From Lophium mytilinum (taxonomy: Eukaryota): 64,000 bases of DNA. The notes under the pieces were generated by a model. The model was not told the DNA's origin. It searched no databases and was given only the letters and a program-made list of their open reading frames with translations. The DNA lies in contig MU004182.1 of assembly GCA_010093605.1 (NCBI GenBank), positions 1,149,032-1,213,031 of the forward strand, written 5' to 3'. Shown piece after piece: positions 5,127-55,562 of this stretch. Made by a program: the position numbers and the translations under genes. Numbering within the stretch: position 1 is the stretch's first letter; each line of letters begins with the position of its first letter.

Positions 5127-5245
5127 GTTGAGAGTTATTTAGGGCGCATGAGTCGTGGTTTGAGACCAACCACATGCAGGCTAGCTAGCCTCGGAGTCAC
5201 ACAAAGTGGCAGAACACGAGTCCATGCGCTTACATGCAGTTCAAC
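5127..5245. repeat. Degenerate palindrome (foldback) with a perfect central palindrome
   Basis: GCGCATGAGTCGTGGTTTG (5144-5162) pairs with CAGAACACGAGTCCATGCGC (5210-5229). Perfect AGGCTAGCTAGCCT at the centre (5178-5191). Outer GTTGA/TCAAC match. Confidence 0.65.
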
Positions 5246-6049
5246 AGGTAGGAAGTTTCCATCCCGGTGTATTCCGGCGCTGTTTAGAGTTATTTCCAGA
5301 TTTTGCATTTGACCAGCTTGAACTACTGAGGTCATCCAGACGGCGGGCTGGTAAAATGCACTGCCACTTTCGTTTCAGGCCACACTACCTACGGAGTCCT
5401 TCCGGGAGCACTCCCTATTCGGCATAGTCATACTTCTTTATGTACGAGCTACAGGTCTCCATGCCGCCCAGTCAAACAATGTGCATCGAATTGGGACAAT
5501 CTCCCTCAGACAAAGTGCCATCGACGACCATTACCCGTTTAGCACACCTCCCATCTCTCTCAAGTGGGGACCAAAACTTGCATTTCGACCTACGACGATA
5601 GCATGGACATACTTTTGTTAGCGGGAGATGATGTTCAACACCTCTTTAGAATCCCATCGGCATTATGCTAAGTCCCGGAGTACTTGGCCTCATTTGTAGG
5701 CGGATAGCCGTCTCAAGCCACCGAAACCCTTTATACTACGACGCATGGATTAGATCCGTGCGTTGGTATGATGCTTCCTGATAGATATCCGTACATTCGT
5801 ACACCACTGCGTGAGGGTCCTCGCAGTGTTTTCAGCATTCTGAATAGGAGAGAAGTTGGGCATATTGGATACGTAATAAACTTTCGAGGCTGCCCCAGAC
5901 AGCGTCAACAGGGTGTACGCAGATTGGAAGTGCATCCGCTGCCCCTTGTGTCTGTTAGTACTTTGAAACCCCACAGACAGTTGCAGGCAAGTGTACGGAT
6001 GTCAATGGCATGACATTGTGGTGGAAATTCTATAGGCGATATAGGTTAC

Positions 6050-6259
6050 ATGGACGAGGCGCTTCGATTATAATTGAGTAGGATTCAGGATTCTCTTGGT
6101 AAAGCGCTATGGGTCATTTAGCGCGGGAAAATCTGTTACCAAAGTGGTCTTTGCGATAATCATCTAAGGACAGCGAAGCTGAAACAGAAGCCTTCTTATG
6201 GATGCAATTAAGCGAATATCCTAGTACGCTGCCCAGCAATTATTAGGAACCTCGTTCTA
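6050..6259. repeat. Weak degenerate palindrome
   Basis: ACGAGG/CCTCGT, ATAATTG/CAATTAT and TAGGA/TCCTA anchor pairs share a centre near 6155. Confidence 0.4.
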
Positions 6260-6922
6260 CGGGGGGATTATAGCAATCTTCGCTAGGTAGGGATACATCT
6301 GTGCTTGCTGTTACAGTTGATGCGAATGAAAAAAGGCTTACTTAGGATCAAGTAGGTTGTAGAAGACAGGAAGAGAGCGATGAAGTTGTAAAGAAAGGTT
6401 ACGCGCCAACGCGAAGGGGACCCAAAAGGGATAGGCTACGTCTGTGCGACACCCCTTTAGGCCTTCAATCTCCGGCAGAGTCTGCAACTGACACCAGCGG
6501 CAGCACATTTCGTGGGGAAACGAAACAAACCCCATGTCAACTTGGCGTATTGCAAACAAGCGATGGCGTAAAAGAATCCTTCGAAGCTTTGCTCTCGTGT
6601 TTCTGGTGCTTTCATGGCGCAGTCAAGCCACAACATGCCAACCTCCATGGTTAGACCAGGACCAAGCGTGGGTGTAACCTCGCGTGCCTCGCTTTGCTAT
6701 GATCCATATGTGAATACCATCATGTATTTAGTTCACTATTGCCTCCGCCTCGATTTCTCGTCATTCCCTGCTGAGAACTCTCTCGTTTCATTCATTCAAC
6801 TGCCCACCTCACTTCAATAGCGATTCTGCGAATCGAACATCTCCTTCCTTTACATCCATATTTTACAAGAGCAATCTTCACTACATACTTTGTCTACACA
6901 TATCGTATCTCTTAGTCCCAAA

Positions 6923-7865
6923 ATGCGGTCCTCTACCACTCTCGTTTGGGCTCTCGGGGCTACTCTTGCTATGGCGAGACCCACACACAAAACGACCACC
7001 GCCACCAAAGCGACCGCGACCGTCTGGCAACCTGCTGCAGGAAGTCAGCTCCAGATGATACTTTCCAAGACAATCGACACGTCCAAATCACTTGTGCCTG
7101 ACGTCGGCATCTTCGACGTCGACTTGTTCGACACTAGCAGCACTATCATTGCCGCTCTTAAGGCCAAGAACAAGAAGGTCATCTGCTACTTCAGCGCTGG
7201 TTCTTATGAGCCCAACCGGTCCGACTCCTCGGATTTCACATCCAGTGATCTTGGCAAGGTCATGGACGGCTGGCCAGATGAGAAGTGGCTAGATATTCGG
7301 ACGGCGAATGTCAAGAGCATCATGGCAAAGCGCATTCAGCTGGCTGCTGACAAAGGTTGCGACGGCATCGACCCTGACAACGTGGACGGTTTTGTAAGTA
7401 ACCGGCATTCGCTCTCCATGGCATTTCCTCTAGATCCTCCTTCGGACATAGCTAACGATACTCGGTGTGAAGGCCAACGACAGCGGGTTCAGCCTAAAAG
7501 CCTCCGATGCAACTACGTTCGTCAAGTACCTCGCTACCACCGCTAAGTCTAAGAACCTGGCTATCGGTTTGAAGAACGCCCTCGCTATCATCCCCGACGT
7601 AGTCGACTCCATCCAGTTTGCTGTCAACGAGCAATGCCATGAATACGACGAATGCGACGTCTATTCCGATCTGACCAACCAGGGCAAGCCTGTGTTCAAT
7701 GTCGAATATCCGGACTCCGCACCAAAAGTCAGCACGAGCGATCGCACGAAGTTTTGCGCTGCATATGATGGTGTTACGCTATCTACTACACTGAAGACGC
7801 TAGACCTTGATGGTTGGGTCGAGTTTTGCGACGGAACTACGGCAACGACTAGCACTCTCTCGTAG
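6923..7865 (+). CDS. Secreted GH114 endo-alpha-1,4-polygalactosaminidase (Ega3-like)
   Basis: Signal peptide; motifs FDVDLFD, KVICYFSAGS, WPDEKWLD, GCDGIDPDNVD, GLKNA, AVNEQC, KPVFNVEY. Intron 7394..7472. Confidence 0.92.
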
Positions 7866-8047
7866 ATATGAGTGACTCTAGTGCAAGGCTGAATATCAAC
7901 AAGGTGGCGAAAAGGAAGCATCACTCTCTGTAAATTATGGAACTTTGGCTGCTCTGGCTGTAGTCCAACTTTCTTTCCGATTCTTGTATCATATCTTCAA
8001 TCAAAAGATGCTCCAACGGCTGGCGGCCGATTCCCAGAATCATCGTT

Positions 8048-9924
8048 TCAAAGTCGCAGCTGCGCAATAACGATAGCTGCGAATAGATACAAAGACTGTT
8101 AAATCAGTCAGCTTAGCACGACTCGAGTAAAATAAGGTAAGGGAATACCCACTGCAGATACAAAATAGGGAAGTCCTAGTCCGGCACCACCGATCTTGAT
8201 AGCCTGAACCCACAGCACAGTCATCAACGGCGCACCAACAAGCGCACCAAGCGACTTAGTCAGCATGACAAGACTGAAGTCCTGCGCATGCGTAGTCTCG
8301 TCTTGGAGCGCGATAAGCGGCGACTTTACCAGGGAGTATAAGAATACGGAGTTGGCCGAGCCAACGGCATAGATCATGAGAGCTTTATCAAGCGTCAGCA
8401 AGATCATACGAAGTATTCAGAGGGGGTTTAACGAATTTCCTTACAAGCCAAGAGCATCCAAATTTTGAATGACATCGCAATGCATAGCACTCCGAGAATA
8501 GAAACGAGAATACTGCACTTTACGCCGAGGAAGTTTAGTCGGTTTTCGGAGCCATGAATGGTCTTGCTCGCCATCGATGTCCGGATAACGCGAGGGACGA
8601 CGATGGTAAGGAGGAGGATGTTAATGGCAGCTTTGGCGGAGAGGAGGTAGCCAGCCTAAGAAGAGGAATAAACAGTTCAGTATCATGCAGATGCTAGATG
8701 ATGGGCCATCATACCTCTGCGAATCTCCACTCGTATCGTGCCGAGATGTACTGAACGAGAAGTCTCGTGTCTGAGCTGGCTAAGTTGGTCAGGAAATAGG
8801 ATGCTAGTATGATCTGAAAGTTACGCCGGCCGACGACTAGTCTTGCAAGCGTCTTCAATGTGTGTAAGATGCGGGTTAAGAATGACTTGGGGGTGTCGAA
8901 TGCGCTTGAAAAGTTGTCTGGGCCCGTTGGTCTGTCTCCTAGGAGAGGGCCAGTCTCTGCGTCGTTTGCGTCGACGACAAGAAGGGGTTTAACGGGAATC
9001 TGTGTTTTTTCCGGGAGGAAGTAGATCGTTATACTCGCCAACAGTAGTAGAGCAATCGCAACCCAGAAGGGCAGCCAAAGACTCTGGCTCATGGTGATGG
9101 AAGCTAACGATGGGCCGACAAATGAAACTACGTAGGTTGCGGAGCCTGTTGTTGGGAGGTGTTAGTGTATATAACACGTTCATAGGGACATGCTCGCACC
9201 TATGTATGAAAAGTAGGAAGCGCTTTCGATTCATCATTAGCACAAGCGCTGAGATATTCCAAAAGAGAGGGGTAGGATACCTTTGGACGTATTCTCTAGT
9301 CAAGGTTGCTGTAAGCGCATATATAGTAGATGACAAAACGCATTCATGACCAAGGATGCTTAGGAATGGACCCGCAATAATGGCTTTTGTCGGGAATATG
9401 TGATCAAAATTGCCTAGAAAACGCTCAACTTCTCTGTAACATAACCATCACCCGGATTGACACATACCTACGACCAGAACCCAAGAACACATGAACAGTC
9501 GAGTGGCCATGTTGAGCCACAGCACGAGTCGAACGCCGAACTTCTCCGCTAGGAAGCTGAACGGAATCGTTACAATGAAGTCCAAGGTAATCGTAGTTGC
9601 TTCCATAATACCTTGCAGCCATGCAAGCTTCTGCTGTACTTCATCAATCTTGCATAGCTTCTCTGGTACCGAGCTACCGGGTCCAAATTTGCTTGGATCA
9701 TGTTGCTTGTAATGGTCTTGACATAAACGCATTTCAATGACGCGGTTCAGTGGGAGATCATAAAGCCGATTAGCCATATGCGTGAAGACTAAAAGAAGCA
9801 ACAGGGTCCATATCGCTCGTTGAGAAGTTCGTCCGGATTTGAGCAGATCTTCCTGTGCTCCTGAGCTTTCTAGTGATCTGTCTAGGAGCCCATCATGCTC
9901 TTCAGCACCCTCACTTGGTACCAT
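8048..9924 (-). CDS. MFS transporter (multi-exon)
   Basis: Hydrophobic exons (RVIEMRLCQDHY...CKIDEVQQKLAWLQG, LWLPFWVAIALL, LLVQYISARYEW, GLPYFVSA) separated by canonical introns. Last exon SLYLFAAIVIAQLRL*. Confidence 0.85.
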
Positions 9925-9989
9925 GATTAGGACAAGATATGTCCGAAGCAGATGCCCGGAGAAGGATTGACGTGCTATTAGTGTCTTCG

Positions 9990-10394
9990 ACTTATGATTT
10001 GCGTCGAGACTCTCTTAGGGGGCAAATATGTCAATGGTAGCGAGTGCACTCGAAATGAGAAGGACGCGTCCAGAAGGGGGAGATGAATGTCTTGAAGCAT
10101 GCTGTACTTATCAAGGTTATGATTGCTAGCAAAGGGCATCTAAAACGTCAAGGATTATACCACTTGGGCATTTAAAACTCCTGGCAAAGCTATCTAAGAG
10201 TTAGCAAGAATCATTCTTACAGCAATGCGGGTTGCTATTGGTATCAGATCCAACAATGATTGAGACTTGAGTTCCCATTGCTATGGCATCGTCAAGGAAA
10301 GGGCCCGTAACTCTCTCTCAGGATACTCGTAAGCTGTGACAGTGTTTCAGCCTTGCCGCCACAAGGCACTCAGCATGCCTCCCCAATACCTTCT
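9990..10394. repeat. Degenerate repeat copy A; internally palindromic; direct-orientation homolog at 12342..12800
   Basis: Collinear blocks shared with copy A': AGAAGGACGCGTCCAG, AGGGCATCTAA, ACTTGGGCAT.TAAAACTC, ACTCTCTCT, TTCAGCCTT, GCACTCA.CATGCCTCC. Internal inverted pairs GAAGCATGCTG/CAGCATGCCTC and AGCAATG/CATTGCT. Confidence 0.75.
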
Positions 10395-10700
10395 ATTTAA
10401 TATGTTATTTAAACACGCTATAACTAATTTTGATTAGGTTCAAAACGGTTCGGTCACCTTCACCGGGTTTAGACGTGCGGTATTGAATTGCTTAAGAGAT
10501 ACAGAGTCTGCATCGTACGTCCCGCCTCCTCCGCAAATCATCCTCTGTACCACGGAGACTTCTTATAGACGTCCAATTTAGCAGATCACAGTCATTGACA
10601 GCAACAAGCGCCAAGCCGGTATTGTCTGAGCAGCTTTCACCGCTCTTGATTTACGGGATTGGGTCACACTGAAAATAGACGGTTTTCCCACAGTGCGCTT

Positions 10701-12146: not shown

Positions 12147-12341
12147 CGCGATAGCAGTAAAAGACGCGGAAGAAGGAAGAAACCGCTGCGATCAAGTCGA
12201 AAGAGGCCAGTGACGGTTGACGTACACAGGACTACGCGGAAGAGCAATGACGGCTTATCACGCTCTTCAGCACTCTTACTCAGTACCATAAACAAGGTAT
12301 AAAGATGTCTAGAGAAGGATGGAGGTATTATTCGGGCGTTA

Positions 12342-12800
12342 ATTCATGGCTTGCATCAACCTTATGTTAGGGTACAATCATTATGATAGGTGGCGAAAGC
12401 ACATAGTAATAAGAAGGACGCGTCCAGGCCTAGTACTTAAAGAAATGTAGCTGGATGTCTAGAAGGAAGCAAGGGAGGGCAGGGCATCTAATTTGTGGCT
12501 ACTTATGCTACTTGGGCATGTAAAACTCTATACAAGGTATTTTAGGCATTGGCAAGTACCACTTCTAACTCACCTGCATGTAGTGTACTATGCAACGATA
12601 TGAAGCCCACAGTAATTGACAAGTACGTTCAAACAGCTATGGTACTGCTAATGAAAGTCCCGAGGACTCTCTCTACGGCCTTTCGCTGTCAGAAGTCAGG
12701 AAGTCTGCCTGAAGCAGCGGTGGCTGAGGCAGTGCTTCAGCCTTCCAACATAAAGCACTCACCATGCCTCCTCCCCACCTGAAATCCTTCTACTTCATCT
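12342..12800. repeat. Degenerate repeat copy A'; internally palindromic
   Basis: Collinear with 9990..10394. Internal inverted pairs TAGAAGGA/TCCTTCTA and CATTGGCAAGTACCA (12547-12561)/TGGTACTGCTAATG (12640-12653). Confidence 0.75.
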
Positions 12801-12863: not shown

Positions 12864-15036
12864 ATGCGGTATTGGAGTACCTGGAGCGAAGTACTTTCAT
12901 GCCTCGCTCACCACCGCAGGTTCCTACCGTCAAGTTTCAATCTCAGCTCTTCTATAAAGCATCGCGTTCGGCAAATTAGCCATGACACGTCAGGGTCAAG
13001 ACCGCGGTATATCGGCTATGCGACGATTGCAGGCGTTGTTGGCACATCTTTCATTGTGAGCGTTGCTACCGTCAGCCTCTCCATCCATCGCACCAACACG
13101 AATAGGCAAAAATTAGCCACGGCGACTGAAGAACAGTGGCCAGTCCATGGGCACATAAAGTCTAGCACCGGGTCCAATTTGGCGTCATCTGGAATAACAA
13201 GATCTGACGGAAGCATCCCCTTTACCTACGATCAGCTGCGCCGGGAGGAGAAGACACGCCTCCTGGTTCTCGAAGCCGGAGAGCCAGAGGATGAACTGAG
13301 GTGTAGGCTGAACCATGTCTCTACTCTTCAGGACTCGCAATACGAGGCATTGTCATACGCGTGGGGCGAGCCTTCGACGACACATTCAATCTACACTCCG
13401 GAAGGTAGTGTTCTGATCACCGCCAGCCTATTTGGAGCCTTGCGTAGGCTGAGACTACCTGATCGGGCTCGAGTCATCTGGGCTGATCAACTATGTATAA
13501 ACCAAGAGGACGAAATTGAGAGAGGACATCAAGTGCAATTCATGAGAGAGATTTACGAAAACGCGACCCAGGTGATCATTTGGCTTGGAGAGGAATCATC
13601 TGTTGATCAGCGCGCCTTTCAATCTCTGGAGATCATCGAAAACAGTCTCGGACTGCCCTACCCGACGCCGGCTACTGGCATGGGCTGGAGAAGACAAAAG
13701 AGTAAGGCTTTGTCTGGAGGTACCATAATGGGGCCGCTCGCCAACGTCGATTCTGATCAACTAGCCAATCTGCTTCGGAGGCAGTGGTTCCGTCGTACAT
13801 GGATAGTCCAAGAAGTTGCAAGCACGAAGAAGGCCACCGTTATGTATGGGTCACAGATAGAAGCCATGGGAAGAGTTCGCAGATGTTTTCATGCGGCTCC
13901 AAACCTTGCCTGTGGACATAGGTTATGTGGAAGACGCCGATATCGTGAATTCCAGGAACAAAATCGCTGCTATCGAAACTGCTAGAAGATCCCGCAACGG
14001 ACCTTTGCACATGCCTCTTTTCCAGATGCTACTAGCCACCTCATACAATCAATGCTCCGATCCCAGAGACAAGGTATACGCTATCCTTGGATTGGGAAAA
14101 GACTGGGACCGGAATCAAGATATGAACCCAGATTACACCGTTGGAATGGGGGAGGTCTACAAGAGATTCGCAATTTGGGACAGCAAGCGAAACGCAAATC
14201 TACGTGTGTTGTCATGTGCGTCGGGCCCAAAAGAGGACGGAGAATCGAGGATGCCTTCGTGGACACCGGATTGGACTAACATTGAAAACGAATCTCCATT
14301 CGTTCGGTATAGCGATCGCACGGGATTTGCAGCTTCGGGCAAGATGTTAGCAATGGCCTGGCATTCACACGATGGCAACACTCTTCATGCTGAAGGGAAG
14401 CTGGTTGATACTGTTCGGGAGCTTGGTTCATTGCCCACTTTCACCCCAGCTACTGGAGTCTTTGAGATAAACCAAGAGAGCATATCGCGATTGCAAAAGT
14501 CAAAGAAGTGGCTTCAGGATTGTCAAAGACTTGCAGAATCTGTCAATGGCCCTTTGAGCAACGACGAGTACAACGCTTTCGCGCGAACCATGACTTGCAG
14601 CCTGACTGGCGATGCCTTCCCCGCTCCAAGTACCTACTCAGCATACTTCAAAGAGTATATGAGGTTCATGGATACCACGCCAGAGAAATACGCTGAATAC
14701 TACAAAGAGTTTGTGTCATCACCGAAACGGTTAATGGGGGCCGATGAGAGAAATCCTTACTTCAGAGGCCATACATTTATCGAATCTTCCCTACAACAAT
14801 GGACGTCGAAACGCCGGCTCTGCACCACCGAAAATAGACGATTGGCAGTGGTACCAAAGTCAGCAAGAGCTGGAGACGCAATCTGTGTTTTGTACGGTGG
14901 CGAAGTTCCCTACGTTCTCCGGCCTGCTCCCGATGGCTTCTATTTCGTTGTTGGAGAGTGCTATGTAGATGATATGATGCATGGCAAAGCTCTTTCAGTC
15001 CAAGGTCTTCGACCCACACGATTTCGGCTGCGGTAA
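12864..15036 (+). pseudogene. HET-domain (het-6-like) gene with one frameshift; pseudogene or sequence error
   Basis: HET motifs YEALSYAWG, WADQLCINQ, QVQFMREIY, WLG and WFRRTWIVQE are in one frame. CSDPRDKVYAILG, MPSWTPDW and VPYVLRP...VGECYVDDMMHG are in the next frame. The frame shifts by +1 at 13854-13860. Confidence 0.85.
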
Positions 15037-15426
15037 TCATGAAAGAATGAACTAGAGTCAGAGCATATACATTCTTTTTAGTACTCATCAACGCACCAAA
15101 AATTCTACTCGTGATCCTAGTTTCGCAAGCATGGAGAGAAAAGAACTTGAGGAACCAGTCCACCCATGCGAAGTCGACAGAGCCCCTTCTTGATGGCGAT
15201 GGCAGAGGAAGATAGGCCTGTCGTTGAGTAAACCGAGTTCCGTGTGCTGCAACCGTCCAAGAGCTCCCTCCACGAACCACAGCGTTGGCTCCTGTCCCCA
15301 GCCCTGCGGTGTTCTTCTACTCATGCTTCCCACCACGGAATGACATCGCAATGAGCCTCGAGGCCGTGCAGACCTTCGGTGCATGATACAGAGCGATCAT
15401 GAAGAGCGAAGCGAAGATCGTTATCA

Positions 15427-17718
15427 CTAAGTAAGTTGAAACGTCTCCAAAGGAACGCCGCGCGCCTTCAAAACCTCAGGCAGCATTCTAGGGTCCGAAT
15501 TCATCTCTTCGCCAGTGATCTTGTTCCGGAATGCTCCGAAGGTTTCGGGATCGCTGCGTACTCTATTTCTTCTTACCGGCTCCCATCCTTCAGGCAGAGG
15601 ACCCAGCCGGGGATCTTCAGACATTGGTATAGTCTGCGCTGTAATGGAGTTGAAGAGGTGATAGGTTGTTCCACCGGCGTTATCGGTTGCAACCTGTACG
15701 ATCCAAGGCTCGGGCAGCGGTCCAAGGAGCGCATTTGCGTCAGCTAAGCCATGGACGTAGCCACACCCAACAACCAGAAATCTTCCAGCTAAGGTCGGAC
15801 GTAAAAACATCGGAGAGTTGCACCCAAGAAAGACGCAGACAAGATCCTCTATCCAAACAGTTAGACTTAATTTCCAAGAGCCTGATATGATGGTTTTTAC
15901 CAGGCTTTGCTAATGTAGGACCCAGTCCAATATAACCTTCTTTTGTCGTTATGAAAGTGCGACCTGCGACATGTCCCATTATGCTTTTCAACTGAACATC
16001 AATCGCGTGTTCAACTTCCGCCCTACCTCCAGGACGAATAATATTGTTAAGTACGAAATTTTTCCACTCCTGAGTCTTTGGCTTGGCACTTATACTCGGC
16101 CACCGTTCTATAACCTCATTGTCGAGGAGCACTAATGCAAACGCAGTCTCTAAGCTCTCTCCTGTGATATATCGAGATGGAAGCGTCATCGCCTTTACTG
16201 CCCATGTCCGAACATCATCCGGTACGTCTTTACTCCACCACGAGGTTGGCTCGGTGGCAGTCTCGACAGTGGCACAACGAACTCCTAGCACCTCTAGCAT
16301 ATTTGGACGCTCGTACCGAAAATATGCACGAGATATCCCGCTGGAAATATGTTCACCAACGGCTGATATCCTTTCTTCTGCCGACGACCAGCTTGGAACC
16401 CAGGACGGAGCGTCGGCAATAGCAGTATTCATATCACAATACTGGAGCAGTTCCACTCGAGAATCATGATTCGAAGACGTAAGGAACGCGTCTTTGTAAA
16501 CCGTACCAACTGTGGCTGAGTAATCGGGTTCGATCTTTGCTAAGCTATTCGAGGCCGTAAGGCCTAGCAATCCGTAGATATAATCTCTGGGATTAGAACA
16601 CAACTGGTACATCATTGTACGAAGTAAGCGACCAAGCGAGAAATCTAATATTGGTCCAATAAGTCCTCCAAGAACGGACAGCAGTACACGAAGCTGAGGA
16701 GAAGGATAATCGCCTTTCACCGACATGCACCGCACCGCCCGACTTAAACGGGACCACAAGATTGTGTCATGTCCGCTCTGCACGAGCGCATGCTTATTGG
16801 CAAGATGAGCTTCCTGCCAGACCCATACACGGGAGAACCAAGAGCGTGTTAGTAGCTCTTGTACGGCCAGCCAAGTCCGGTCATCGTACGGTAAGACACA
16901 GTCCGGGTCATACCAGTCAGGTTCTTTGGCTGTGGGAGATCTCATTGCGCAGCTGTCCTTGGTAAATTCTACCTGAGCTGCGATGTAATCCAGTGTGTTG
17001 ATTGCCAATTTGCTGTTGTCTGCCTCTGGTCCAAGCCAGATGATAACGCGTTCAGCTGACTTGTATATGTTCGCCATACGCTTGACCTGCTCGTTGCGTT
17101 CATTCTCGTCACCTTGATACGGTGGTCTATTAGCATGGAAAGTGCAACAATTTAAATCTGAAAACACGTACCTTGATTTATGACCACAGCATCTACCCAT
17201 AGCATCCGAGATTTGTCGCAATATCGCAGGTACCTCAACGCGACGGAAAGATTTCGCGTAACCGGTAATAGCGATACGGCCTGGGATACAGCAGCGACAA
17301 CATAAGCGTTCTCTGGATTCTCTGCTGAACCCCAAGTATAGGATAAAGCTTCGTATCGCGGCTGATACTCGGTATATGGCATTTCTGGTGGTCGAGCATA
17401 GCGGGATCGCTCGATATTAGGCACTGGGTGCTCCCAAAAGTTCTGGCCTCTGCTGCCGAAGATATAATCTCCTTCAACGGTCTCAGAGACCCCCCATCCA
17501 GGCGGTAAGGTCTCCCTCACCTCTCTCAAAGACATTCTCTCCACTGGGCGCTCCTTAGGAACTACTAGGGGAGCATGACAGAGCTCGAACCGAATTGGAT
17601 CCTCAAATCTTCCCGGCAGGAGCTTTATGAGCCTGATCTCCTCGGTCTCTCGGTCCAGCGGGGCATATTGATAAGGCGCCGCTGCGGAGGGTATCGAGGC
17701 CTTTGATCCAGATTCCAT
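15427..17718 (-). CDS. HET-domain protein with three WW-like modules
   Basis: EIRLIKLLPG, YEALSYTWG, WVDAVVINQ, QVKRMANIY, WFSRVWVWQE, PRDYIYGLLG, PSWVPSW, VVGCGYVHGL. Introns 17113..17171 and 15849..15900. WW-like segments LPPGW...WEHP, GPLPEPW...EDPR and GPLPEGW...SDPR. Confidence 0.9.
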
Positions 17719-17955
17719 GGAAGACACTTTCGAACACTCAAGTGGGAGATGACTTTCTCCAAGAGGTAAGGCGATACCTTGCGAGTTTAGGGAGAACCGA
17801 ATGGAGAGACGAAGGAACTTGCAGCGGACGTGGATTCTGCCATTGTAGAATGTGTAGCGAGGCTGTGAATAAGCAAGGCAACGGTGCCAAGAACGACGTG
17901 CATTTGTAGTATGCATTGAATCCTTAGCGCATATCTCCTATCATGGACACTACGC

Positions 17956-18115: not shown

Positions 18116-18290
18116 CCTGCTCCCGACGGTTTCTATTATGTTGTTGGAGAGTGCTCTGTGAATAATATCATGCACGGCAAAGCTCTTTCAGTTCAAGGTC
18201 TTCGAACCACACGATTTCGGCTGCGGTAATCTTGTAGGAGGTAGAGATGAGCCAGTCACAGCATATACATTCCTTTCAATACTCATCAAC
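18116..18290 (+). pseudogene. Orphan diverged copy of the last 38 codons and 3' UTR of the HET gene at 12864..15036
   Basis: 18116..18229 aligns without gaps to 14923..15036 (102/114 nt identical, including TAA) and translates PAPDGFYYVVGECSVNNIMHGKALSVQGLRTTRFRLR*. The 3' UTR block AGCATATACATTC...TACTCATCAAC is also shared. Confidence 0.92.
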
Positions 18291-26000: not shown

Positions 26001-26150
26001 CTAAGTCCATGAGAAGAACATGTAGGATAAACATCAAGCCTTCATGCGGGGAGTGATAGAATACCGCTATCCAGTAGCTAAGTGCAACGGTCGTATCTCC
26101 ATGCATGAGTCCAATAACGACGACGCTTGACACCAACCCCCTCTTATGAC

Positions 26151-36505: not shown

Positions 36506-36558
36506 AGCTCTGCAGCAGTACAAATAAATCTGCAGCGAGGCATAGTAATGTTTTGCAG

Positions 36559-39927: not shown

Positions 39928-40144
39928 AAGAATTGTTGGAACTTGCTAAAGACTTTCGTTTCTTATCCACAATGGTAGACCTTTTCAAGAACTTTGATGG
40001 AGCGTACGTAACTTTGTTGCTCTATGAGCTACAGTACCATAATGGCTTATTTGGGAAGAATATGCACCATTTGTGTCATTGATTCCGTAAATATTCGTTT
40101 AGGTAAGAGGGAAAATCATCGGTTTCTTTGATACTAAAACTCTT
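39928..40144. repeat. Degenerate palindrome
   Basis: Nested pairs CACAATGGT/ACCATTTGTG, CTTTTCAA...ATGG/CCAT...TTGGGAAG and GACTTTC..TCTTA/TAAGA..GAAAATC. Confidence 0.55.
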
Positions 40145-40263
40145 GCCGGCTACTCAAAACGTGAAAATTCCTCCCATTTGTATCTCATCTACACGCTAAA
40201 ACTACGTAGAAACATAAATCTAAGCTTGATGCCATCGTAGCTTCGTCTCTTTTACACTTCATC

Positions 40264-41815: not shown

Positions 41816-42632
41816 GCTTAAGTCAGAATGGAACTACGAGAATGGATGTGGATACAATAGAGGCTCGCGAGCTGGGCTGCAATTGGAGATTTTTTTCGCT
41901 GCAGGACGTCTGGCGACATCGAGTTAGATCGACCGCGCCACAGGGTGACAAAGCTAGGCTATTTTAGCCACAGCTAGCATCTATTTTGGCGTGCCCTGGT
42001 GCGCTTGTGCCCTCCAGCATGGTGTGGCAGCCTCGGCCTGGTCTCGGTGGAGGCGTAACTTTAGAGGCCTTTCTTGGGTTGCGTTTGAGGCCGCGCACTT
42101 CGATGCCCGCATGAAACATCCTCATGCAGCGCCGCAGCCTCTCGTCGTGGGCCGCCAGGATGGCTTCTCCAGATCAAGTTGCCAGCAGCTGGGTATACTC
42201 AGCCGCCAGCTCACCGCAGAGATGGCTACAAGCCTTCAAACGAGCTACCTCGATTCGCCGCAACCAGCCAAGAGATGCGCGCTGTGCGTCCGGTGGCTGT
42301 GTGCAGGTGAAGCTGATCCACTTGCGAAGGGCTGACCACCAACGCAAAGTGGAATCTGGGGCTGATGCAGTGCAGTCCATGTGCAGACCGAGCCCTACCT
42401 CCACCATACATACCCACGATACCCGTGCCATTCCGTCCTGTTCCCTCTTTCCCGTCGTCCTCTTCATGCAGCCCGGCGTTTGCTGAAGCCTCCACCCCCA
42501 GGCATTTCCGCCGAGAGCTCTCCACTGCTACGCGCTCATCAGCGGCCGATCCTTCTTTTCGATTCCCACCTGCCCACGTTGAGGCCAATTGTATACGGTC
42601 CTACCACGGTGGGATCTCTGTGCTGTTAGGAT

Positions 42633-44454
42633 ATGGATACGAGCACATGGAAAGCGCCGCAGCAGCTCCCCGAGCGGCTGCCTTTCTCCAAAAAAAAGCT
42701 CCCCAAGAAGGTGATGCTATCGTGAGTTCTGGCATGCTCCAGATATTGGAACAGTACGCTGATGGGCGCAGATATATCCTCGACTATGTTATAATTATGT
42801 ATGTTGGCCCCCAATCTGCGAAACACACGACCTCCTGCCCGAACCGGACTGACCCCCAGCTATAGAGTCCTAATTGCCGGCTTCTTTGCTCTCGACGCCG
42901 TTGAGCCATACCACCAGCACTTCTCCCTTCAAAACTACACACTACATTACCCGTATGCCGAACATGAGCGCGTCCCGGTGCCGTGGCTTGTGGTCATCGC
43001 TTGTCTAGGCCCAGCAGCCGTTATCGCCGTTTATACCCTCGTGATCGATGGACTCTTCTCACACCAGGTCGCGACGACTTCGACAGGCAGGAGGAGGAAG
43101 TTGACTGGCAAATACAGATTGAAGGACAGGCTCTGGGAGTTGAATTGCGGAATATTAGGGTTGGCGTTGGCCGTTGGCGCCTCGTTCGTCATTGTTGGTA
43201 GAGACACCCATAGTCCCGCATATACTCTCCCAATACTGACGCAATACAGGCGCTCTAAAGAATGCCATTGGCAAACCAAGACCAGATCTAATCGCGAGGT
43301 ATGCGCTGCGGAGATTTTTAGAAGACTAGCGCTGACTATGAATAGATGTATGCCCAAGACGCAGACCGACCCCCCAGGACTCAAGCTGTCAGATCATAGC
43401 ATCTGCACCAATAAGGACAATGCCGTTCTCAAAGATGGCTTCCGGAGCTTTCCCTCCGGACACAGCAGCAGTAGGTTTGAACACTCGAATACTTTTAGAC
43501 GCAACACTGATGCGCATAGCTGCTTTTGCTGGCCTCTTCTACCTCTCTATCTACCTAGTAGGCAAAATGCACGTACTAGACTCCAAGGGCGAAGTATGGA
43601 AGACTTTCATCATTCTCATTCCCACTCTCGGCGCTGCCCTAATCGCCGGATCCCGTATCATGGACGCCCGCCATCACCCTTTCGACGTCCTTTCTGGTAG
43701 TGCTCTCGGCATTCTCGTAGCATGGGGAGCATACCGCCAGTACTTCCCACCAGTGACAGAACCCTGGAAGAAAGGCCGTGCCTATCCCATCCGTGCCTGG
43801 GGCAAAGAGCCCGTCGCGCCCGTCCCAATGGCCCAAGTAGAAGAAGACGTCCAACCCCTCCGACCCCGTGTCCCTGACACCGAACGCGGACACGCTTCGG
43901 GCTTCTCCTCACCCACCGTCGTCGTTGGCTCCGGCGACACCGATCCCAACGCCAACGTCTTCCGCGCCCAAATTTCCGCCTCACAACGCAGCCGCGATGG
44001 GACCGCCTACCGCGGACCCCCCTCCTCCGCCTACAGCACCAACCCGCCAGAGCGACATGGCACCAATCTCACTGCCTCCTCTACCTACACCGGCACTCTC
44101 CCTGCCTCAAACCCCTTCGCGCCCCGCGACGCACACGACCCCTACGGCTACTCCTCGTCCGAGGAAGACGACTCCTACGAGCTGCAGCCCACGTACACCC
44201 TCACGAACCCGCATGGCGGGCCGCCCGTTGCCTACGATCCTGCATTTGGCCAGGACACGAGCTACCACGCGCAAGCTGTGACGCCCGTGCCCACACCGCC
44301 GCCACTGGCTCCAACCGTGAGGAAACCGCTGGCTCCCAGTACGAGTGGGGATATAGGAGAAGGCGGTGCAGCGCCGCCACAGCCGCCTGTGCATGCGGCG
44401 GGGACGACGGGGGAGTTTAGGGGCGTGCAGCTTACCGAAACGTACGCGAAGTGA
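42633..44454 (+). CDS. PAP2-family lipid phosphate phosphatase (Dpp1/Lpp1-like) with a long disordered tail
   Basis: After splicing: KNAIGKPRPD, SFPSGH, SRIMDARHHPFD. Five short canonical introns. First exon MDTSTWKAPQQLPERLPFSKKKLPKKVMLS. Confidence 0.9.
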
Positions 44455-44806
44455 GGGTACCGAATGATGTTCTTGAGTTTGCGAGCGAGCGAGCTAGTGA
44501 GCCGGTTGAGAGTGAAAACGGGGGTTGGAGGAGCGTAGATTGATTGATACGTATGGCAGGATCCTCGGCGAATACGTGTACGTTCTGGTGTTTAATAGTT
44601 CTGGAGTCTGGATGCGGGGGTTTTTAGGTTTACCGGCGAAGCGATGTGGAGCGGTGCTCCTTGCGCGGATGAGAGAGAAGAGGATGGGGAGAGTTGCAGA
44701 CGATTGAGCGTCTGGCGGGAGGGAGGTTGTGTCAGCGGCCGATGGGTTGAAGAGGGTGTGAGGTTGAGGGGCAGTGGTGGATCATGAATACTCTGTATCC
44801 AGGGTT

Positions 44807-44966
44807 GCAGAAGTACAGCTAATGAATGAAGAAACCATCTCAAAGCTCTATGTGCTGCCTTGTTTGACCTACGCAGTTCTGATGATTAGGGGGTCATCCA
44901 CGAAGCGTAGGGCACGTTGCGTAGCATGCTGTTCTTCTAACTCAGCTTTCATGCAGTCGCTTCTGC
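44807..44966. repeat. Degenerate palindrome between convergent genes
   Basis: GCAGAAG...ATGAA...GAAGAA (44807-44833) pairs with 44932-44966. CCTACGC...GATGA (44868-44885) pairs with TCATC...GCGTAGG (44894-44911). The two centres agree within 3 nt. Confidence 0.7.
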
Positions 44967-45197
44967 CAGAACTTGTGACAAAAGTGAGAAGGTTCTAGGC
45001 AGAGGTACCTTGTGGGATTGCAAAGCGGCCACGAGGAGGGCGCCTAATGTGCGACAAACCATGGACACATTAAATCTACACTCATGCTTGTATACAAGAC
45101 TATTGCTGCTACACCCACTAGTCTCCGGCAAGTCGATACAAAACGGGAGGACAACAAGTCCCATCTGGACCCAACATCGTACATACATCCCCACCTC

Positions 45198-47484
45198 TCA
45201 CGTCCCCACCGGCCCCAGAAACCCCTCCAACCTTCCCCTATCCATCTCCACCAACCCCACTCTCGCATCCCAGCTCTCCCAGATCTCGCGACTATAGTAC
45301 CTCGTCCACAGATCCTCGAACAGCAGCTGCGGATGGTGCGATATCAAACTCGTGAAAGCAGAGACATCAAAACCTTCACCCTTCGCGGACGCGAAATAGC
45401 CATCCCGTCGCGCCCGCATGACCGCAGCCGTAAAGACCTGGATCCAAAACGCCTTCTGCGTCAATCCCGGTATCTGCGGACCCGCAAGCGTCGACATCGC
45501 TTCTGAGGCGGCGGCGGAAGGGTTGCGAAAGGGGGTGGTGAAGAGGACGAAGAGGGCATAGAGGAGGTGCGCGTGGGTGGTGATTTCTGGCAGCTTGGCA
45601 GCAGAGAATTCCTGGGATTTCGCGAGTTCTTTGATTTGGCTGAGGATGAGAGCTTTGCGGAGTTCGATGTCGTCTTTGTTTCTTGAGGGGACAGACGACT
45701 CAACTACGATCAAGTCCTGGTCGTCTTCGTCGTCTTCGTTGGTGCGGAGGGAGGGGGGTTGGGCTTTGGTCTCCTCGTTGAGAAGGTTGTTTTTAGCTTG
45801 TGGTAAGCCTCCGCTTTGTGAGATTCCGATTACGTTTGGGAGGGGTTGGATATCGGGGTTCTTGAATTCCATACGTGCGGGGACTGAGTCCCACACTTTT
45901 GCTGTGTAGTACTTCTTCCACAGGTTCTCGTCCTTCAGGTCCGGAAACAGCGACGAGAAAGTCTCGAAGGTCATGTTGGCCAAGGAGGGCTTCTTTTCTG
46001 CGTTGGCTGTGGAAGTAGACGAGAAAGACTGGAAGGCTGGGAGTCCTGCAACAGCAGCGTGGGTGATCTGAACCCAGAACAATGCTTGAGTCTCGGAGTA
46101 GGCTGGGACAGATGAGTCGGTGGCTCGTAGCTGGAGGGTCATAGACTGCAGAGCTCGCAAGGTCGCTTTGATGATTAGGCCGCGGCGTTGGTTGGTCGTC
46201 ATGTACTCTCGGACGACGAGGAAACCAAACTGGGCGAGGCGGTAGCTGTGTGCTGTATCTTTGACTTCACCAGAGGTAGGCGTGGAAGCCTGAGGGCGGG
46301 AGCTTGGGGCTTTGGGGATATAGTCTGGCAATGGGGCAAGATCAGGCAGGCACCAATTTTCTTTTGCCTCTGGACTGAAGAGGAGAGCTTTGGTGTAGTG
46401 AGGTTGCCATATACGGCCATTCATCAGAGAGGGCGTATACAGCAGTACCTGTTGGAAATCTTCTGCGCTTGGCAAGGCCCCATCGTTCACTTCATCGCGA
46501 TACCTGAGAATGGCGAGACGGATATGATGAAGCCAGAAAATGGTCATGGTCCTGCACATTTCACAGATTAGTTGAATTTCTAAGGCTTCTTCTTGAAGCG
46601 ACGTACCTGTGTTGAGTATTCGTGAATCTTTGTGGATTGCTATCTCTCAATTGTTCCAATTGTTGGAGAAAGACTTCAACTGCGTCCCAAATTGATCCCA
46701 TCTTTGACAGAACATCCAAGTAAATCATATACCCGGCTTTCAAATGACATCGGTGATCCCACGCCGGTAGTTGTGCTGTAGTGAGCAGCTTCCAGAATTC
46801 GCCTGCGGAGATGTCGGTCAAACCTTCACTGCCTATCTTGGCTCTGAGTTCCTCATCGGTCGGCATTGCAGTGGTTGGGGCGATCGGTGATTTCTCCTTC
46901 CCTGGCCGCTTTTTCTGCTGCTGTTCCAAGGTCGTGTGAATCTCTTCGAAGATTTGCCAGACGTGGTCATCCTCCAATAGACTAAGCCCCGGCTGACTGA
47001 AAATCTTCCATTTCAACAACTGTGGCAAGGCTCTGAGCCTAGACTCATACTCCTCTTTTATCTTCCTAACCGTCTCATCCCGAGTATCAGGCGGTAAGAG
47101 GTCCTGCTTCGCCAACGCAACCCAGAAGTACTGTCCACCAGCATCGAGAAGCTGCTTTGCGTGCATCTCCAATAGCTCGAAAGAAAAGTTTCGATACCAC
47201 TCGTCTTGTGCCGTAACATCAACTAGAAACAGCACTCCTGACTCTGAGTCCAGGAGATGACGGGCGAGGGGAGCGATCTTGTCACACCCTCCGAAGTCCC
47301 AGAAGTTGATCTCTTTCTTCCCAAGCTTGACAGTTTCGATGTTGAACCCGATGGTTGGAATAGTGGTTATGACTGCGCCTGTTTTGAGCTTGTATAGCAG
47401 CGTTGTTTTGCCCGTCCAGCTTGAGCCGAGAAGAACGCATTTGTGATCGGCAGGGCGTCGCCAATGGGCGAGTCTGGATAGCAT
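45198..47484 (-). CDS. ARF-like small GTPase fused to three repeats of an uncharacterised domain
   Basis: GSSWTGKTTLLYKLK, TIPTIGFNIETV, WDFGGCDKI, AKQD. Intron 46552..46606. Repeated FW...F....P.L....W..(H/Y)Y...PD..PLP pattern. Confidence 0.88.
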
Positions 47485-47805: not shown

Positions 47806-48048
47806 TGCATCAATGCAGCTTTGACTTAACTGCCTAATATCCAAGAATTAAGATACTTATCATGAATTTGAAACAATCAACAAATCGATAGAGATGGATG
47901 GGGCTCTGGGGTATAAATGATATTGTGCCGGACAGCACCAACGCTTAGACGCATTGGCCCAACGTGTTGGACTTCTTTCAAAGCTTGCCATGATTATTAT
48001 GGTCTAGTCGACTGTCTTGTCACCTCCAGGTCAAGGATGAAGAATGCA
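47806..48048. repeat. Degenerate palindrome in the divergent promoter; related to the 36-kb family
   Basis: TGCAT...TTGAC pairs with GTCAA...ATGCA, and ATCATG..TTTGAAA..AACA pairs with TGTT..TTTCAAA..CATGAT, both centred at 47927. CCAAC..GAC..TGGCCC...GCTTGCCA resembles 36001-36051. Confidence 0.65.
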
Positions 48049-50163: not shown

Positions 50164-50481
50164 TAGCACGTCTACAAGCCCGCTTTTGGGTATCATAATG
50201 AGGAGTTTGGGCCTTGAACTTTTACACTACCTCGTCATAAATAAATAGCCGCACACTCGTTCACCGCAGCGTGAGGGGCCTCGCAGTATGTTCGGCGTTC
50301 CGAGCGAGAGAAGTCTGGTATTTTGAGCAATGAGTAAGCTCGCGAGGGTACCTCATACAACGTCAGCAGGTTGTACACAGAACTGAAGTGTGTCAACAGC
50401 CCCGGTTTATGTACGGTGTATGTATAGGGACGGTGATAGGAAGGTGTACGGATATGTGTGGCAAGGTACTATCAGACGATG

Positions 50482-53067: not shown

Positions 53068-53126
53068 AGGACTCGGGAGGTGGAAGTCTGGAAATGGCGG
53101 CGAGAGTGAGCCTTGAAGGAATTGGG
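53030..53126 (+). repeat. Tandem 48-bp duplication spanning the F-box stop codon
   Basis: GGTGGACGTCTGGAAATGGGGGTGAGAGTGAGTCTTGAAGGACTCGGG versus GGTGGAAGTCTGGAAATGGCGGCGAGAGTGAGCCTTGAAGGAATTGGG. Confidence 0.9.
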
Positions 53127-53289
53127 CGAAAAAGACTTGTGTAAATACTGAAATGATGTAACTGTACTCATTTCCTACCCACACGTGCGCAATTGGTATT
53201 GACAATGCCGCCTCCCTGACAAACCCGTGAGATGCACCATTTTGCTCCATGCTTTCTAGACTCCCTGCCTAACCTACCGTTCCCTGTGC

Positions 53290-55161
53290 TTATAGCATGA
53301 CAACTCCTACTCCACGCATGTTCTTCTCGCTTGGCAGGTTCCTCGCATCCAGACCTCCGGGTAAAGGTGCTGTACGGTAATTGAAAAGGTAGAAGTTGAG
53401 CTGGCCATCACCGGCGCCGAATTTTTGCTCTTCGAGGAACAGGGGATTGTCCAAGAGAGTCAGTGCGTTGAAGACGTCGAATTTCGCCTGTGGATGAGGT
53501 CAGTAACGGACTAATCTTGTTCTCCAAGAGCATCAAAGTGAAACTTATGGAGACAGGCATGCTTTTACTCACATTCTTCGCCAGAATCAACGCATCCTTA
53601 ATGAGCGCATTCAACTTCGGCTTCAGTAGCGTCTTATCCTTGTCAAACGCCGTCTCGGTCGCGTAATAGTACAAATACGCCGCCCTCACTACCTTATGCT
53701 TCTTATGATTAATGACCGTGCTCTCAAGACAGTAGAAGGAGACGTAGTCCGTGATCTTCTTGGTATTAGGGTCCTCCACAACATACGACCACACGACTTG
53801 CTCTTCCACAGTCTTGGAAGGCAGTAGCCAGTGCTCCACCTCCTCGCGTGTGAAGATCTGGGCTAGCTGCATTGTTGCGAGGTAGCGCTTCAGGAGGTCA
53901 AGGACGTTGTCGATATCTTTGTTCTCCATTGGACGTAGGCCTGGTAGGTTCGTCCTCTCGGGTAGTTTGTATTTGATGACCTGCCGCTGCTTTGTGCTAC
54001 CAGGGGGTAGGTGGGAAAACTTGCACTCGTATAGCTTCTCCCAGTCTAGAGCCCGGTGGAAGTACCGGCAGGTTGAGATTGGTGTAGGGATGAGCACGCC
54101 GGCAGTGTAGATAGCCTGGAAGATGCCCTCCAGGTAGCAGCGACGGGTGATCTCCTTGATGAGAACCGGAGCGAGGCGTTTTGATCGGAGCTTCTTGTGG
54201 ACGACTAGGAAATTAACTTCTGAGCAGTGGACGAGCTTTTCCCGGACGCGAAGTTCAACGGGAATCGCAGAGATGAATGCTACGAGCTTGCCTGAGGCCG
54301 ATGCTCGGACACCAACGTGCCACTCCTTTTTCCAACCTGGCGACTTGAGAGCCCTGCTTTCGTCAGTTTCAGCCATAAGAGCGTACAATGTATAGCTTAC
54401 CAGTCCAAAAACGATCTCGAGTAATTGAACCTAAACTGCGCATCATCATCCTCGACATAATGCCCCGTCAGCAGCTCATACGTTTCATCTAGCTACGCAA
54501 GCATTAGCCCAACTCCCCAATAATCCCACTGTCTCCAACGTACCTGCTTCTCATCCTCCAAATCCATCGTCACCCACTCAAACCCAGGATACATCTGACT
54601 CGGCTCCTTCCCCACTCTGTCCAGATCAATCTCCTTAATCGCCCCATCCTCCTGCTTCCCCTTCGCCTCATCAAACTTGGTCACCGGCTGCGTATTCCAA
54701 AACGCATGGCTCGCCATATCCTTCTTATTCTTCCCCCCCGGCGCCGTCCCCGTCAGCACATCGCTAACCGTCAACTTGCGCAACAGCTCCTGCACGCTGA
54801 CCTTCTTATCCGACGCCTGCGAGTCCATCTCCTGCTTGAGCGCCGGGTTCGTCTCTAGCAGCGCCGCCAGCTGCTCTTTCGACAGCTTGTCGCCAATCTC
54901 CCCCGCGTCCTTGTCGTCCGAGCTCGCGGTGGATTTGCCCGTCAGCGCGGCTTTGAGCTTGCGCTTTTTGCTGCTCTTTTTCTTCGTGGGAGCGGAGGTG
55001 CCGTCGCCGGAGGGGGCTGCGGGCGTGGGCTCGTCGGAGCCGCTGCTGGCGGCGGAGTCGTCTTCGACGGTTACGGAGGGGTTGGTGGATTCGGCGATGG
55101 CTGCGGCGGCGGCCGCGCCTGAGGCGGAGGACTCGCCCGGTTTGGATTCTTGGGCGGGCAT
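53290..55161 (-). CDS. NMT1: Glycylpeptide N-tetradecanoyltransferase (N-myristoyltransferase)
   Basis: [74 protein letters not shown], terminal GVGVVML*. Three introns. Confidence 0.97.
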
Positions 55162-55376
55162 TGTGGTGGGTTGGGTATGTCGAGGTTAGGTGTTGAAGGT
55201 GGTTTGTGGGAGTTTCGAGGTTGGTGTGGTGAAGTAGTCCGGGGAAAGGCCAGGTGGGAGAGCTGACCTCATTTATAGTGGGATGGTGGGGCTCGAAACC
55301 AGAGCGACATCAGAGCAATATCAGGCACCGATTTTGTAGATCACTAGAATCGAGTAATGAAAGCTTAAAGAGCCAC

Positions 55377-55562
55377 GGAGAACACATTGTAGACCTCAGA
55401 AACTGTGCAATAATACCACAGAATTAATCTGGTCATCTTGAGCTCAGACGACTTTGGCGGTCCCTAGTCTATGTCACGGAGGAAGCACAACAGAATTGGC
55501 CAGATATATGGTAGAATCACACCAGTAATTAGGTAAAAAGTCTCTATCTACATTCCTTCTGC
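55377..55562. repeat. Degenerate palindrome upstream of NMT1
   Basis: Nested pairs TGTAGA/TCTACA, TACCA/TGGTA and ATCTGGTCA/TGGCCAGAT around ~55467. Confidence 0.55.

Follow-up and report, generated by a model that had tools for sequence, protein, structure and literature searches.

A probable cluster of old hairpin MITEs from two dispersed families in one spacer of a 64,000-nucleotide ascomycete window, with the other claimed spacer palindromes at chance level

The foldback (FB) elements of Drosophila consist of two long inverted arms made of tandem sub-repeats, with arms reaching up to kilobases, and nested MITEs are known from plants, where a MITE inserted within another MITE leaves its own target-site duplication (TSD). 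TSDs of 9 bp are not unique to the Mutator superfamily, as Merlin elements make duplications of 8-9 bp. For the Mutator superfamily, TSDs of 9-11 bp and long TIRs are the features given in the description of the Epichloe festucae MITEs (PMC3227409, after Wicker et al. 2007), where the Mutator-assigned elements EFT-24m and EFT-26m are described with 9-bp TSDs and TIRs of 115-116 bp (Fleetwood et al. 2011, PMC3227409), and where EFT-24m is given a mean pairwise identity of 49% (PMC3227409). A keyword literature search retrieved nothing pairing foldback and MITE for ascomycetes, nor anything on fungal palindromic MITEs.

Here we analysed a stretch of 64,000 nucleotides from an ascomycete fungus, hereafter the window, in whose spacers an initial annotation had recognized 13 degenerate palindromes. 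In all likelihood, 12 of these 13 are at chance level as palindromes, and the region at 36.0-36.7 kb is an old, non-coding cluster of hairpin MITEs belonging to two dispersed families, referred to as A and H. As far as the Epichloe elements are described in PMC3227409, EFT-24m and EFT-26m resemble the A and H elements in their Pezizomycotina host, small size, non-coding nature and high degeneracy, as well as in their location in spacers near genes, and nesting is also considered in that source; the inverted arms of ~90-130 bp found here compare with TIRs of 115-116 bp, and a 9-bp TSD is shared, putative in our case and limited to a single H element, H1 (PMC3227409). This likeness is one of described features and not of sequence, and the superfamily is suggested here by a single TSD. 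Whereas TIRs around a unique core are described for EFT-24m and EFT-26m, the A element, ~270 bp long without its insert and with arms of ~130 bp, is almost wholly palindromic, its centre spanning at most 10 nt. As in FB elements, nearly the entire A or H element corresponds to two long inverted fold-back arms, but these carry no tandem array and the elements measure only 230-270 bp. As in the plant nested MITEs, the A element closes up once H1 and one TSD copy are removed; unlike them, the single nested case found here allows no claim of insertion preference.

The cluster is located in a tandem spacer, following a transglutaminase-like gene and preceding the next + strand gene. BLAST self-comparison of the whole window yielded six matches (E<=1e-3), the only inverted pair among them being the arms of the A element (36022-36139 and 36374-36492; 119 columns, 76% identity, E 5e-17), and the interval 36004-36505 displayed a DNA MFE of -86.6 versus -54.5 +/- 4.3 in its shuffles (fold z -7.5). 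The left A arm (36004-36132, + strand) pairs with 36374-36492 at 91/118 positions; this left/right pairing scored 62 versus a null of 10.4 +/- 1.9, a value attained by none of 300 shuffles. It is followed by the left copy of a 9-bp direct repeat, AGGTATATC (36133-36141), a putative TSD matching the right copy (36371-36379) at all nine positions, with the latter overlapping the right A arm at its inner end. Between both copies lies the nested hairpin element H1 (36142-36370, 229 bp), and beyond them the inverted right A arm (36380-36510, - strand), delimited by BLAST and arm pairing; in eight contigs carrying this arm elsewhere, the sequence past 36479 resembles that found in the left arm at its outer end (agreement 0.88). 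A second family-H hairpin element with a degenerate left end, H2 (36511-36742), adjoins the outer A element, and H1 aligns with it as a direct repeat in two segments (50/61 and 63/88 identical positions), neither score being attained in 300 shuffles. The arms of H1 pair with each other at 27/36 positions, a score found in one of 300 shuffles, and those of H2 do so weakly (29/38; attained by 26/300). Conversely, 69/89 positions pair between the left arm of H1 and the right arm of H2 (0/300 shuffles), a better match than H1 achieves between its own two arms, and therefore recombination or conversion between copies must also have taken place.

With regard to coding potential, the longest stop-to-stop frame in 35950-36800 comprises 90 aa, and a scan of 22 window ORFs, with Pfam matches in 11, detected no transposase family. 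TRF revealed no array of tandem sub-repeats in the arms of the cluster, reporting a 10-nt unit repeated 1.9 times (36004-36022) and an 11-nt unit repeated 1.9 times (36593-36613). The segment 36750-36777, which might be a third A fragment, paired weakly (21/27, with 12/300 shuffles attaining its score) and is not claimed. The inverted arms, small size (usually under 500 bp), non-coding nature and many dispersed copies expected of MITEs are all present, the last as contig pile-ups with differing flanks, together with one exact 9-bp repeat at H1 as a putative TSD.

This 9-bp duplication is a single instance, as no flanking duplication of at least 6 nt was found in the searched flanks of the A element or of H2. 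Its left copy abuts the left terminus of H1 at 36142, a terminus defined independently by repeat-pair alignment, and an exact match of such length turned up no more than 8 times per 20000 trials under any of three palindrome models, and 6 times in 20000 shuffled flanks. We propose that a family-A element of ~270 bp was present first in the tandem spacer, that the 229-bp H1 later inserted at its centre, duplicating 9 bp of target, and that a second H copy, H2, was placed just to the right of the A element. Movement would have depended on a transposase supplied in trans, which for H may have been a Mutator-like enzyme in view of its 9-bp duplication and long arms (~90 nt, although the own arms of H1 pair only over the 27/36 positions indicated above); both kinds of elements would now be inactive and decaying by ordinary mutation. 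An alternative origin is local duplication and inversion, for instance by template switching during repair, in place of the insertion of mobile elements; the modules are in fact interleaved (A, H1, A', H2) and form no simple nest, H1 and H2 are direct repeats, and the best partner of the left arm of H1 is the right arm of H2. However, A and H each match many contigs with unrelated flanks and occur apart, the copy near 28 kb being devoid of H and H being flanked elsewhere by non-A sequence, and an exact 9-bp flanking repeat stands precisely at the independently defined terminus of H1, all of which makes a local origin unlikely. Returning to insertion by mobile elements, the location of H1 at the exact centre of A could point to a preference of H for palindrome centres, by targeting of an extruded hairpin or cruciform loop, and some H copies might also act as sources of hairpin RNA, given that one H-like joined form sits in a high-depth RNA contig of run X3; we regard this idea as improbable.

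The dispersal of both families was assessed with contigs of the probable source genome aligned to 20 kb of the window, a comparison in which contig counts are not copy numbers. Contig depth was 154-215 in 28 of 30 bins, rising to 1380 at 28001-28667 and to 3510 at 36005-36671; these were the only pile-ups, and 236 of the 264 aligned contigs were less than 99% identical to the window, 153 of them less than 90%. Families A and H each matched dozens of other contigs. Matches to H1 start at 36184-36190 with flanks of low agreement, and therefore these contigs stem from different places; furthermore, contig joints connect 36225 to 36610-36614 with 5-21 other letters in between, and thus short-loop hairpin copies exist elsewhere. 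Runs X4 and X9 reached few parts of the spacers, and coverage by the related organism of run X4 stopped at the repeats.

The pile-up near 28 kb corresponds to a diverged relative of family A (28011-28184, + strand), in which 28073-28191 aligns to both arms of the 36-kb element with 68-70% identity (z 8.0). At >=80% identity this relative was covered by up to 31 further contigs from the probable source genome, a contig count and not a copy number, with 31 contigs over position 28091 and matching records 2-4 running from 28011/28015 to 28174/28184. As a palindrome, the claimed interval 28046-28365 was recovered as the best of its own spacer with a score of 20 versus 19.0 +/- 3.7 in shuffled sequence, and its outer arms, when tested specifically, gave 15 versus 10.5 +/- 1.7, a score attained by 7/300 shuffles; it therefore stands as a repeat copy whose palindromic nature is unproven. 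A head-to-head palindrome centred near 28062 was considered and discarded (7 versus 7.8 +/- 1.4), as was the inverted partner at 28270-28370, which displayed no likeness to the 36-kb arms (p about 0.15-0.18). The searched flanks of this copy contained no duplication of at least 6 nt.

The remaining spacers were evaluated with a selection-aware test, in which 24 ORF-free spacers were divided into 32 tiles and the best local palindrome of each tile was compared with dinucleotide shuffles. Only the tile 35957-36925 exceeded every shuffle (120 versus 21.2 +/- 4.7), and no other tile was better than its shuffles at p<0.089. Mean best scores were 16.3 in 23 spacer tiles, 15.8 in shuffled spacer tiles and 16.4 in 97 ORF-covered tiles of 400 nt, without difference among them (Mann-Whitney p 0.53 and 0.77). 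The reported absence of palindromes from coding sequence hence finds no basis in these ORF-covered tiles, and is a product of where the earlier reader looked. Planted palindromes with 100-nt arms at 60% identity were recovered in 50/60 cases, and in 46/60 after adding 5% indels; accordingly, the test is sensitive down to 60-65% arm identity, and below ~60% eroded palindromes are indistinguishable from chance by all the tests used. Einverted-like scoring of the 11 unconfirmed loci gave p values of 0.086-0.99, and their DNA fold z ranged from -1.29 to +1.65, in both cases with the exception of 5127-5245; the 12 claimed intervals other than that at 36 kb all had a fold z between -2.41 and +1.65. 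This interval gave an einverted-like p of 0.023 (uncorrected, one of 13 tests) and a fold z of -2.41, with 2/50 shuffles as stable, and was recovered as the best palindrome of its own spacer with a score of 18 versus a shuffled mean of 18.5; it is marginal at fixed interval, and a small real hairpin may exist there.

Two general readings had been offered for the spacer palindromes. One of them is a functional, genome-wide hairpin or cruciform system, in which the palindromes would serve as precursors of small RNAs or as boundary elements, or would be scars left by template-switch repair. At the 36-kb locus alone it finds some agreement, the RNA contigs of run X3 containing family-H and family-A sequence; by contrast, outside that locus the claimed intervals have fold energies that do not rise above noise, no Rfam match was obtained in the window at gathering score, and palindromes are in no excess over shuffles, so that such a system is scarcely credible. 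ARAGORN detected no tRNAs in the window. The other reading is that very old foldback transposons, eroded by RIP or otherwise, densely populate the spacers at about one per 5 kb. In its favour, the 36-kb and 28-kb loci truly carry such repeats, and at the fixed coordinates of the claims each of the 13 intervals has a global palindrome score higher than its shuffles (z 0.8-4.4 without that at 36 kb). Nevertheless, when the best intervals were chosen in shuffled spacers, the same fixed-interval scoring gave a mean z of 3.94 (42 of 64 shuffles; the 22 with intervals <60 nt were left out), equalling or exceeding the range of the claims. The apparent significance at fixed coordinates is a boundary-selection effect, reproduced in shuffled DNA, and the selection-aware scores equal both the null and ORF-covered DNA. 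Strand-symmetric local composition was discarded as the source of the fixed-interval excess because shuffling within blocks of 10-20 nt and shuffling whole intervals yielded nearly the same z.

Sequence relationships among the claimed elements also argue against a dense foldback population. In an all-versus-all comparison, only 2 of 78 element pairs displayed homology (z>3): the asserted relationship of the 28-kb and 36-kb elements holds, that of the 10-kb and 12.5-kb elements holds as a direct repeat, and the 47.8-kb element is not homologous. Besides those at 28 and 36 kb, three claimed loci fall within the 20 kb compared (26151-26479, 39928-40144 and 44807-44966), and none of the three attracted extra contigs at >=80% identity. 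As for the observation that many arm mismatches are transitions, it applies to the real repeats, with transition:transversion counts of 16:11 between the 36-kb arms and 30:9 between H1 and H2, but not to the other 12 claimed loci, whose pooled mismatches (153 transitions and 254 transversions) are near the 1:2 ratio of unrelated sequence. RIP is recognized by C:G to T:A transitions being in excess, together with a TpA/ApT above ~0.89 and a (CpA+TpG)/(ApC+GpT) below ~1.03. The real copies differ from one another by an excess of transitions, but the two indices disagree, a TpA/ApT of 1.26 fitting this process and a (CpA+TpG)/(ApC+GpT) of 1.34 not, so that the repeats are at most candidates for RIP; the GC content of the repeats is 0.43 versus 0.53 in the window. 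Taken together, these findings leave the dense-population reading very improbable and close to refuted.

Neither a dense foldback population nor a genome-wide hairpin system is therefore sustained, because spacer inverted-repeat scores equal those of shuffled controls apart from the 36-kb and 28-kb pair, which is the outcome that the initial annotation had itself named as contrary to its proposal. Its view of non-autonomous foldback transposons survives for the 36-kb locus (36004-36505) and the related 28-kb copy and fails for the rest of the spacers; of the 13 claimed palindromes, that at 36 kb is clearly real, that at 28 kb is confirmed in part, and 11 are not above chance. The elements at 36 and 28 kb are an ordinary degenerate MITE set and not a genome-wide hairpin system.

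The main value of this analysis is thus a negative result. By-eye "concentric" matching in spacers yields about one palindrome per spacer in any DNA, and therefore the headline pattern does not deserve to be retained as evidence of a genome-wide system. What is left is a pair of uncharacterised, MITE-like ascomycete families and one clean nested insertion with a 9-bp duplication, of use for repeat annotation in this genome; the 36-kb cluster is one of typical degenerate fungal MITEs near genes, and opens no new question. Possible metagenome relatives were sought with a 19-nt core of the H arm, retrieving six loci whose similarity was seed-limited (19-28 nt, plus two stretches of 39 and 25 nt at 74-88%); we consider them chance matches and not relatives because BLAST similarity was confined to the seed.

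Degenerate palindromes had been proposed by the initial annotation for most intergenic spacers, on the basis of 13 intervals. Self-BLAST of the whole window (E<=1e-3) returned six repeat pairs, of which one was inverted, 36022-36139 with 36374-36492 (119 columns, 76%, E 5e-17), and a repeat finder reported 20 inverted pairs, the longest four all within 36.0-36.7 kb and the remaining 16 with arms of 14-27 nt and found within ORFs too. Under einverted-like scoring with 300 dinucleotide shuffles per claimed interval, 36004-36505 scored 153 vs 35.4 +/- 6.5 in shuffles, 5127-5245 had a p of 0.023, uncorrected for 13 tests, and the other 11 had p values of 0.086-0.99; softer and transition-tolerant local scoring of the 13 intervals agreed with this result. 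The DNA folding energy z was -7.5 for 36004-36505 (0/50 shuffles equally low), -2.4 for 5127-5245 (2/50) and between -1.29 and +1.65 for the other 11.

Global alignment of each interval with its own reverse complement gave z values of 0.8-4.4 for the 12 intervals other than that at 36 kb. Local composition was considered as the source of this excess and rejected, as shuffling in 10- or 20-nt blocks leaves it in place. The best palindromic intervals of dinucleotide-shuffled spacers, scored globally, displayed a mean z of 3.94, with 95% above 2 (42 of 64 shuffles; 22 were dropped, their best interval being below 60 nt), and the excess of the claimed intervals is due to boundaries chosen to fit. 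A selection-aware test was carried out on 24 spacers without open frames of at least 110 codons (15,622 nt, 32 tiles), each tile being scored, with permissive parameters, by the best match obtained when it was locally aligned with its reverse complement, against 100 dinucleotide and 100 block shuffles. Tile 35957-36925 alone stood out (120 vs 21.2 +/- 4.7); the palindrome at 36004-36505 is also the one inverted BLAST pair, and exceeds shuffles in the einverted-like, folding and selection-aware tests. The same test re-found 5127-5245 and 28046-28365 exactly, as the best palindromes of their own spacers (18 vs a shuffled mean of 18.5, and 20 vs 19.0); the next-lowest dinucleotide p values among the 32 tiles were 0.089, 0.099 and 0.099, and block-shuffle p values of 0.040 and 0.050 in two tiles approximate the chance yield of 31 tests. 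Planted palindromes with 100-nt arms were detected in 59/60 cases at 65% identity and 50/60 at 60%, and with 5% indels in 56/60 and 46/60, respectively.

Mean best scores of 400-nt tiles were 16.3 in spacers (n=23), 15.8 in shuffled spacers and 16.4 in ORF-covered sequence (n=97). Since coding tiles score like spacer tiles, the absence of palindromes from coding sequence stated by the initial annotation reflects where it had looked. Spacer scores match both shuffled and ORF controls, apart from the 36k and 28k loci, which is the outcome named beforehand as counting against dense spacer palindromes; dense spacer palindromes are thus unsupported, and a palindrome in most spacers is no real feature. 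The reported abundance of transitions among arm mismatches holds for real repeats, which an excess of transitions marks (transitions:transversions 16:11 for the two arms at 36k and 30:9 for the pair of inner copies), but not for the other 12 claimed palindromes, whose summed 153:254 is close to the 1:2 ratio that unrelated sequence would give. As for homology among the claimed elements, 2/78 pairs exceeded z 3: 10094-10381 paired with 12454-12800 at z 14.9, and 28046-28365 paired with 36004-36505 at z 8.0, whereas 47806-48048, grouped with the latter pair, matched neither member in these 78 comparisons.

The 36k locus is composed of four modules. The left arm (A, 36004-36139) pairs with an inverted right arm (A', 36374-36510) at 91/118 positions, and these enclose H1 (36140-36373), a direct repeat (50/61 and 63/88) of H2 (36511-36745). 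The arms of H1 pair with each other at 27/36 (1/300 shuffles) and those of H2 at 29/38 (26/300), while the left arm of H1 pairs with the right arm of H2 at 69/89 over 89 nt, a score reached by 0/300 shuffles. According to RNA contigs (run X3), in which introns are short and GT..AG, the cluster sits in a tandem spacer, beginning ~70 nt past the transcript contig end (35935) of a transglutaminase-like gene, with the next + strand gene several hundred nt downstream. Within the cluster there was no open frame >90 aa, no tandem sub-repeat array and no match to an Rfam family or tRNA.

An exact 9-nt direct repeat, AGGTATATC, at 36133-36141 and 36371-36379, adjoins 36142-36370 on both sides, and the left terminus, 36142, was set independently by an inverted pair (I3) of the repeat finder. 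Simulation of 20000 palindromes at each of 15%, 23% and 30% divergence yielded an equally long direct match 0, 2 and 8 times, respectively, and shuffled flanks yielded one in 6/20000. The 11 nt preceding the left copy form the exact reverse complement of the 11 nt following the right one; hence, minus H1 and one repeat copy, the A hairpin would be continuous, with a centre of ~10 nt. The sequence thus bears the signature of a putative H1 insertion that split an A element at its centre and produced a target-site duplication (TSD) of 9 bp. Searches for duplications flanking the A element, H2 and the 28k copy returned none.

Genomic contigs from run X1, the probable source genome, were aligned to 26000-45999 at >=80% identity. 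Contig depth was flat, 154-215, in 28/30 bins, and rose to 1380 in 28001-28667 and 3510 in 36005-36671; identity was <99% in 236/264 aligned contigs and <90% in 153. No extra contigs were found at 26151-26479, 39928-40144 or 44807-44966, claimed palindromes within these aligned 20 kb. Matching began at 36184-36190 in 42 contigs, which come from different loci, as their preceding sequence is dissimilar. Other H copies are short-loop hairpins, as seen where contigs join 36225 to 36610-36614 across 5-21 other letters. No A-like flanks accompany H copies elsewhere, nor does the A-like 28k copy contain H, so A (~270 bp) and H (229 bp in H1) are separate families. Run X3 also contains the joined form (36225 to 36613), which represents an H-like short-loop hairpin located elsewhere in the genome, within an RNA contig whose depth is 3695; neighbouring gene contigs have depths of 400 to 1400, several times lower, and at least one H copy therefore lies within an abundant transcript.

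Both 36k arms align with 28073-28191 of the 28k locus (68-70% identity). Position 28091 is covered by 31 genomic contigs, and the stretch found in other genomic contigs is 28011-28184, on which the claimed palindrome 28046-28365 is not centred. For the outer arms of this palindrome (28046-28108 with 28301-28365) the score is 15 vs 10.5 +/- 1.7 (reached by 7/300 shuffles), and the putative right arm shows no resemblance to the 36k arms. The repeat copy, homologous to the 36k arms, is real; the palindromic form (20 vs 19.0 in shuffles) is unproven.

The 36k locus and the 28k copy are best read as MITEs (miniature inverted-repeat transposable elements), degenerate and of a known type, that lie in the genome of a member of Pezizomycotina and include a nested insertion; contig matches, differing flanks and the 9-bp repeat uphold the suggested foldback transposons here, though not as a dense spacer population. 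Such non-autonomous DNA transposons would be mobilised in trans by a transposase recognising their inverted ends, and H would have inserted at the middle of an A element, duplicating 9 bp of target; the order A, H1, A', H2, together with H1/H2 cross-pairing, would imply some later recombination or conversion. The 9-bp duplication and ~90-nt arms of H fit Mutator-type MITEs of Epichloe festucae, EFT-24m and EFT-26m, described in PMC3227409 with a 9-bp TSD and terminal inverted repeats of 115-116 bp; on a single TSD, membership of H in the Mutator superfamily is possible, if somewhat doubtful. The elements are old, given 76-77% identity between arms and <90% identity for most other copies. C-to-T repeat mutation (RIP) at the repeats is not demonstrated, as RIP indices disagree, and PMC3227409 argues that MITEs below ~400 bp largely escape RIP.

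GC content is ~52% across the 64 kb, and the genes are typical of a filamentous ascomycete (two HET-domain, cyclin, N-myristoyltransferase, TLDc, Arf-like, WD40 and protein-kinase). Scanning of 22 long ORFs against Pfam gave matches for 11, with no transposase among them. Other repeats were direct. The pair at 9870-10400 and 12235-12790 is ~500 bp long and was aligned by BLAST in pieces with identities of 68% and 82%. Each copy spans the upstream region plus the initial few codons of a gene on the minus strand, in one case a membrane-protein-like ORF with its start near 9924, in the other an ORF that lies upstream of a protein-kinase gene and starts near 12300; the two open alike (MVPSEGAEE, MVLSKSAEE), and the pair resembles a duplication of promoter plus 5' end rather than a palindrome. 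A repeat of ~165 bp in two distant spacers, 5781-5945 and 50241-50403 (71.5% identity, E 2e-16), retains a short GC-rich palindrome in both copies, lies near, without overlapping, the claimed elements at 5.1k, 6.0k and 50.5k, and may constitute a third dispersed family. Finally, 14923-15092, within a long ORF (13891-15036) next after a HET-domain ORF, is repeated at 18116-18290 (177 columns, 83% identity, E 2e-46), in a spacer by the second HET-domain gene (15740-17916, minus strand), and probably represents part of a HET-locus gene that was duplicated.
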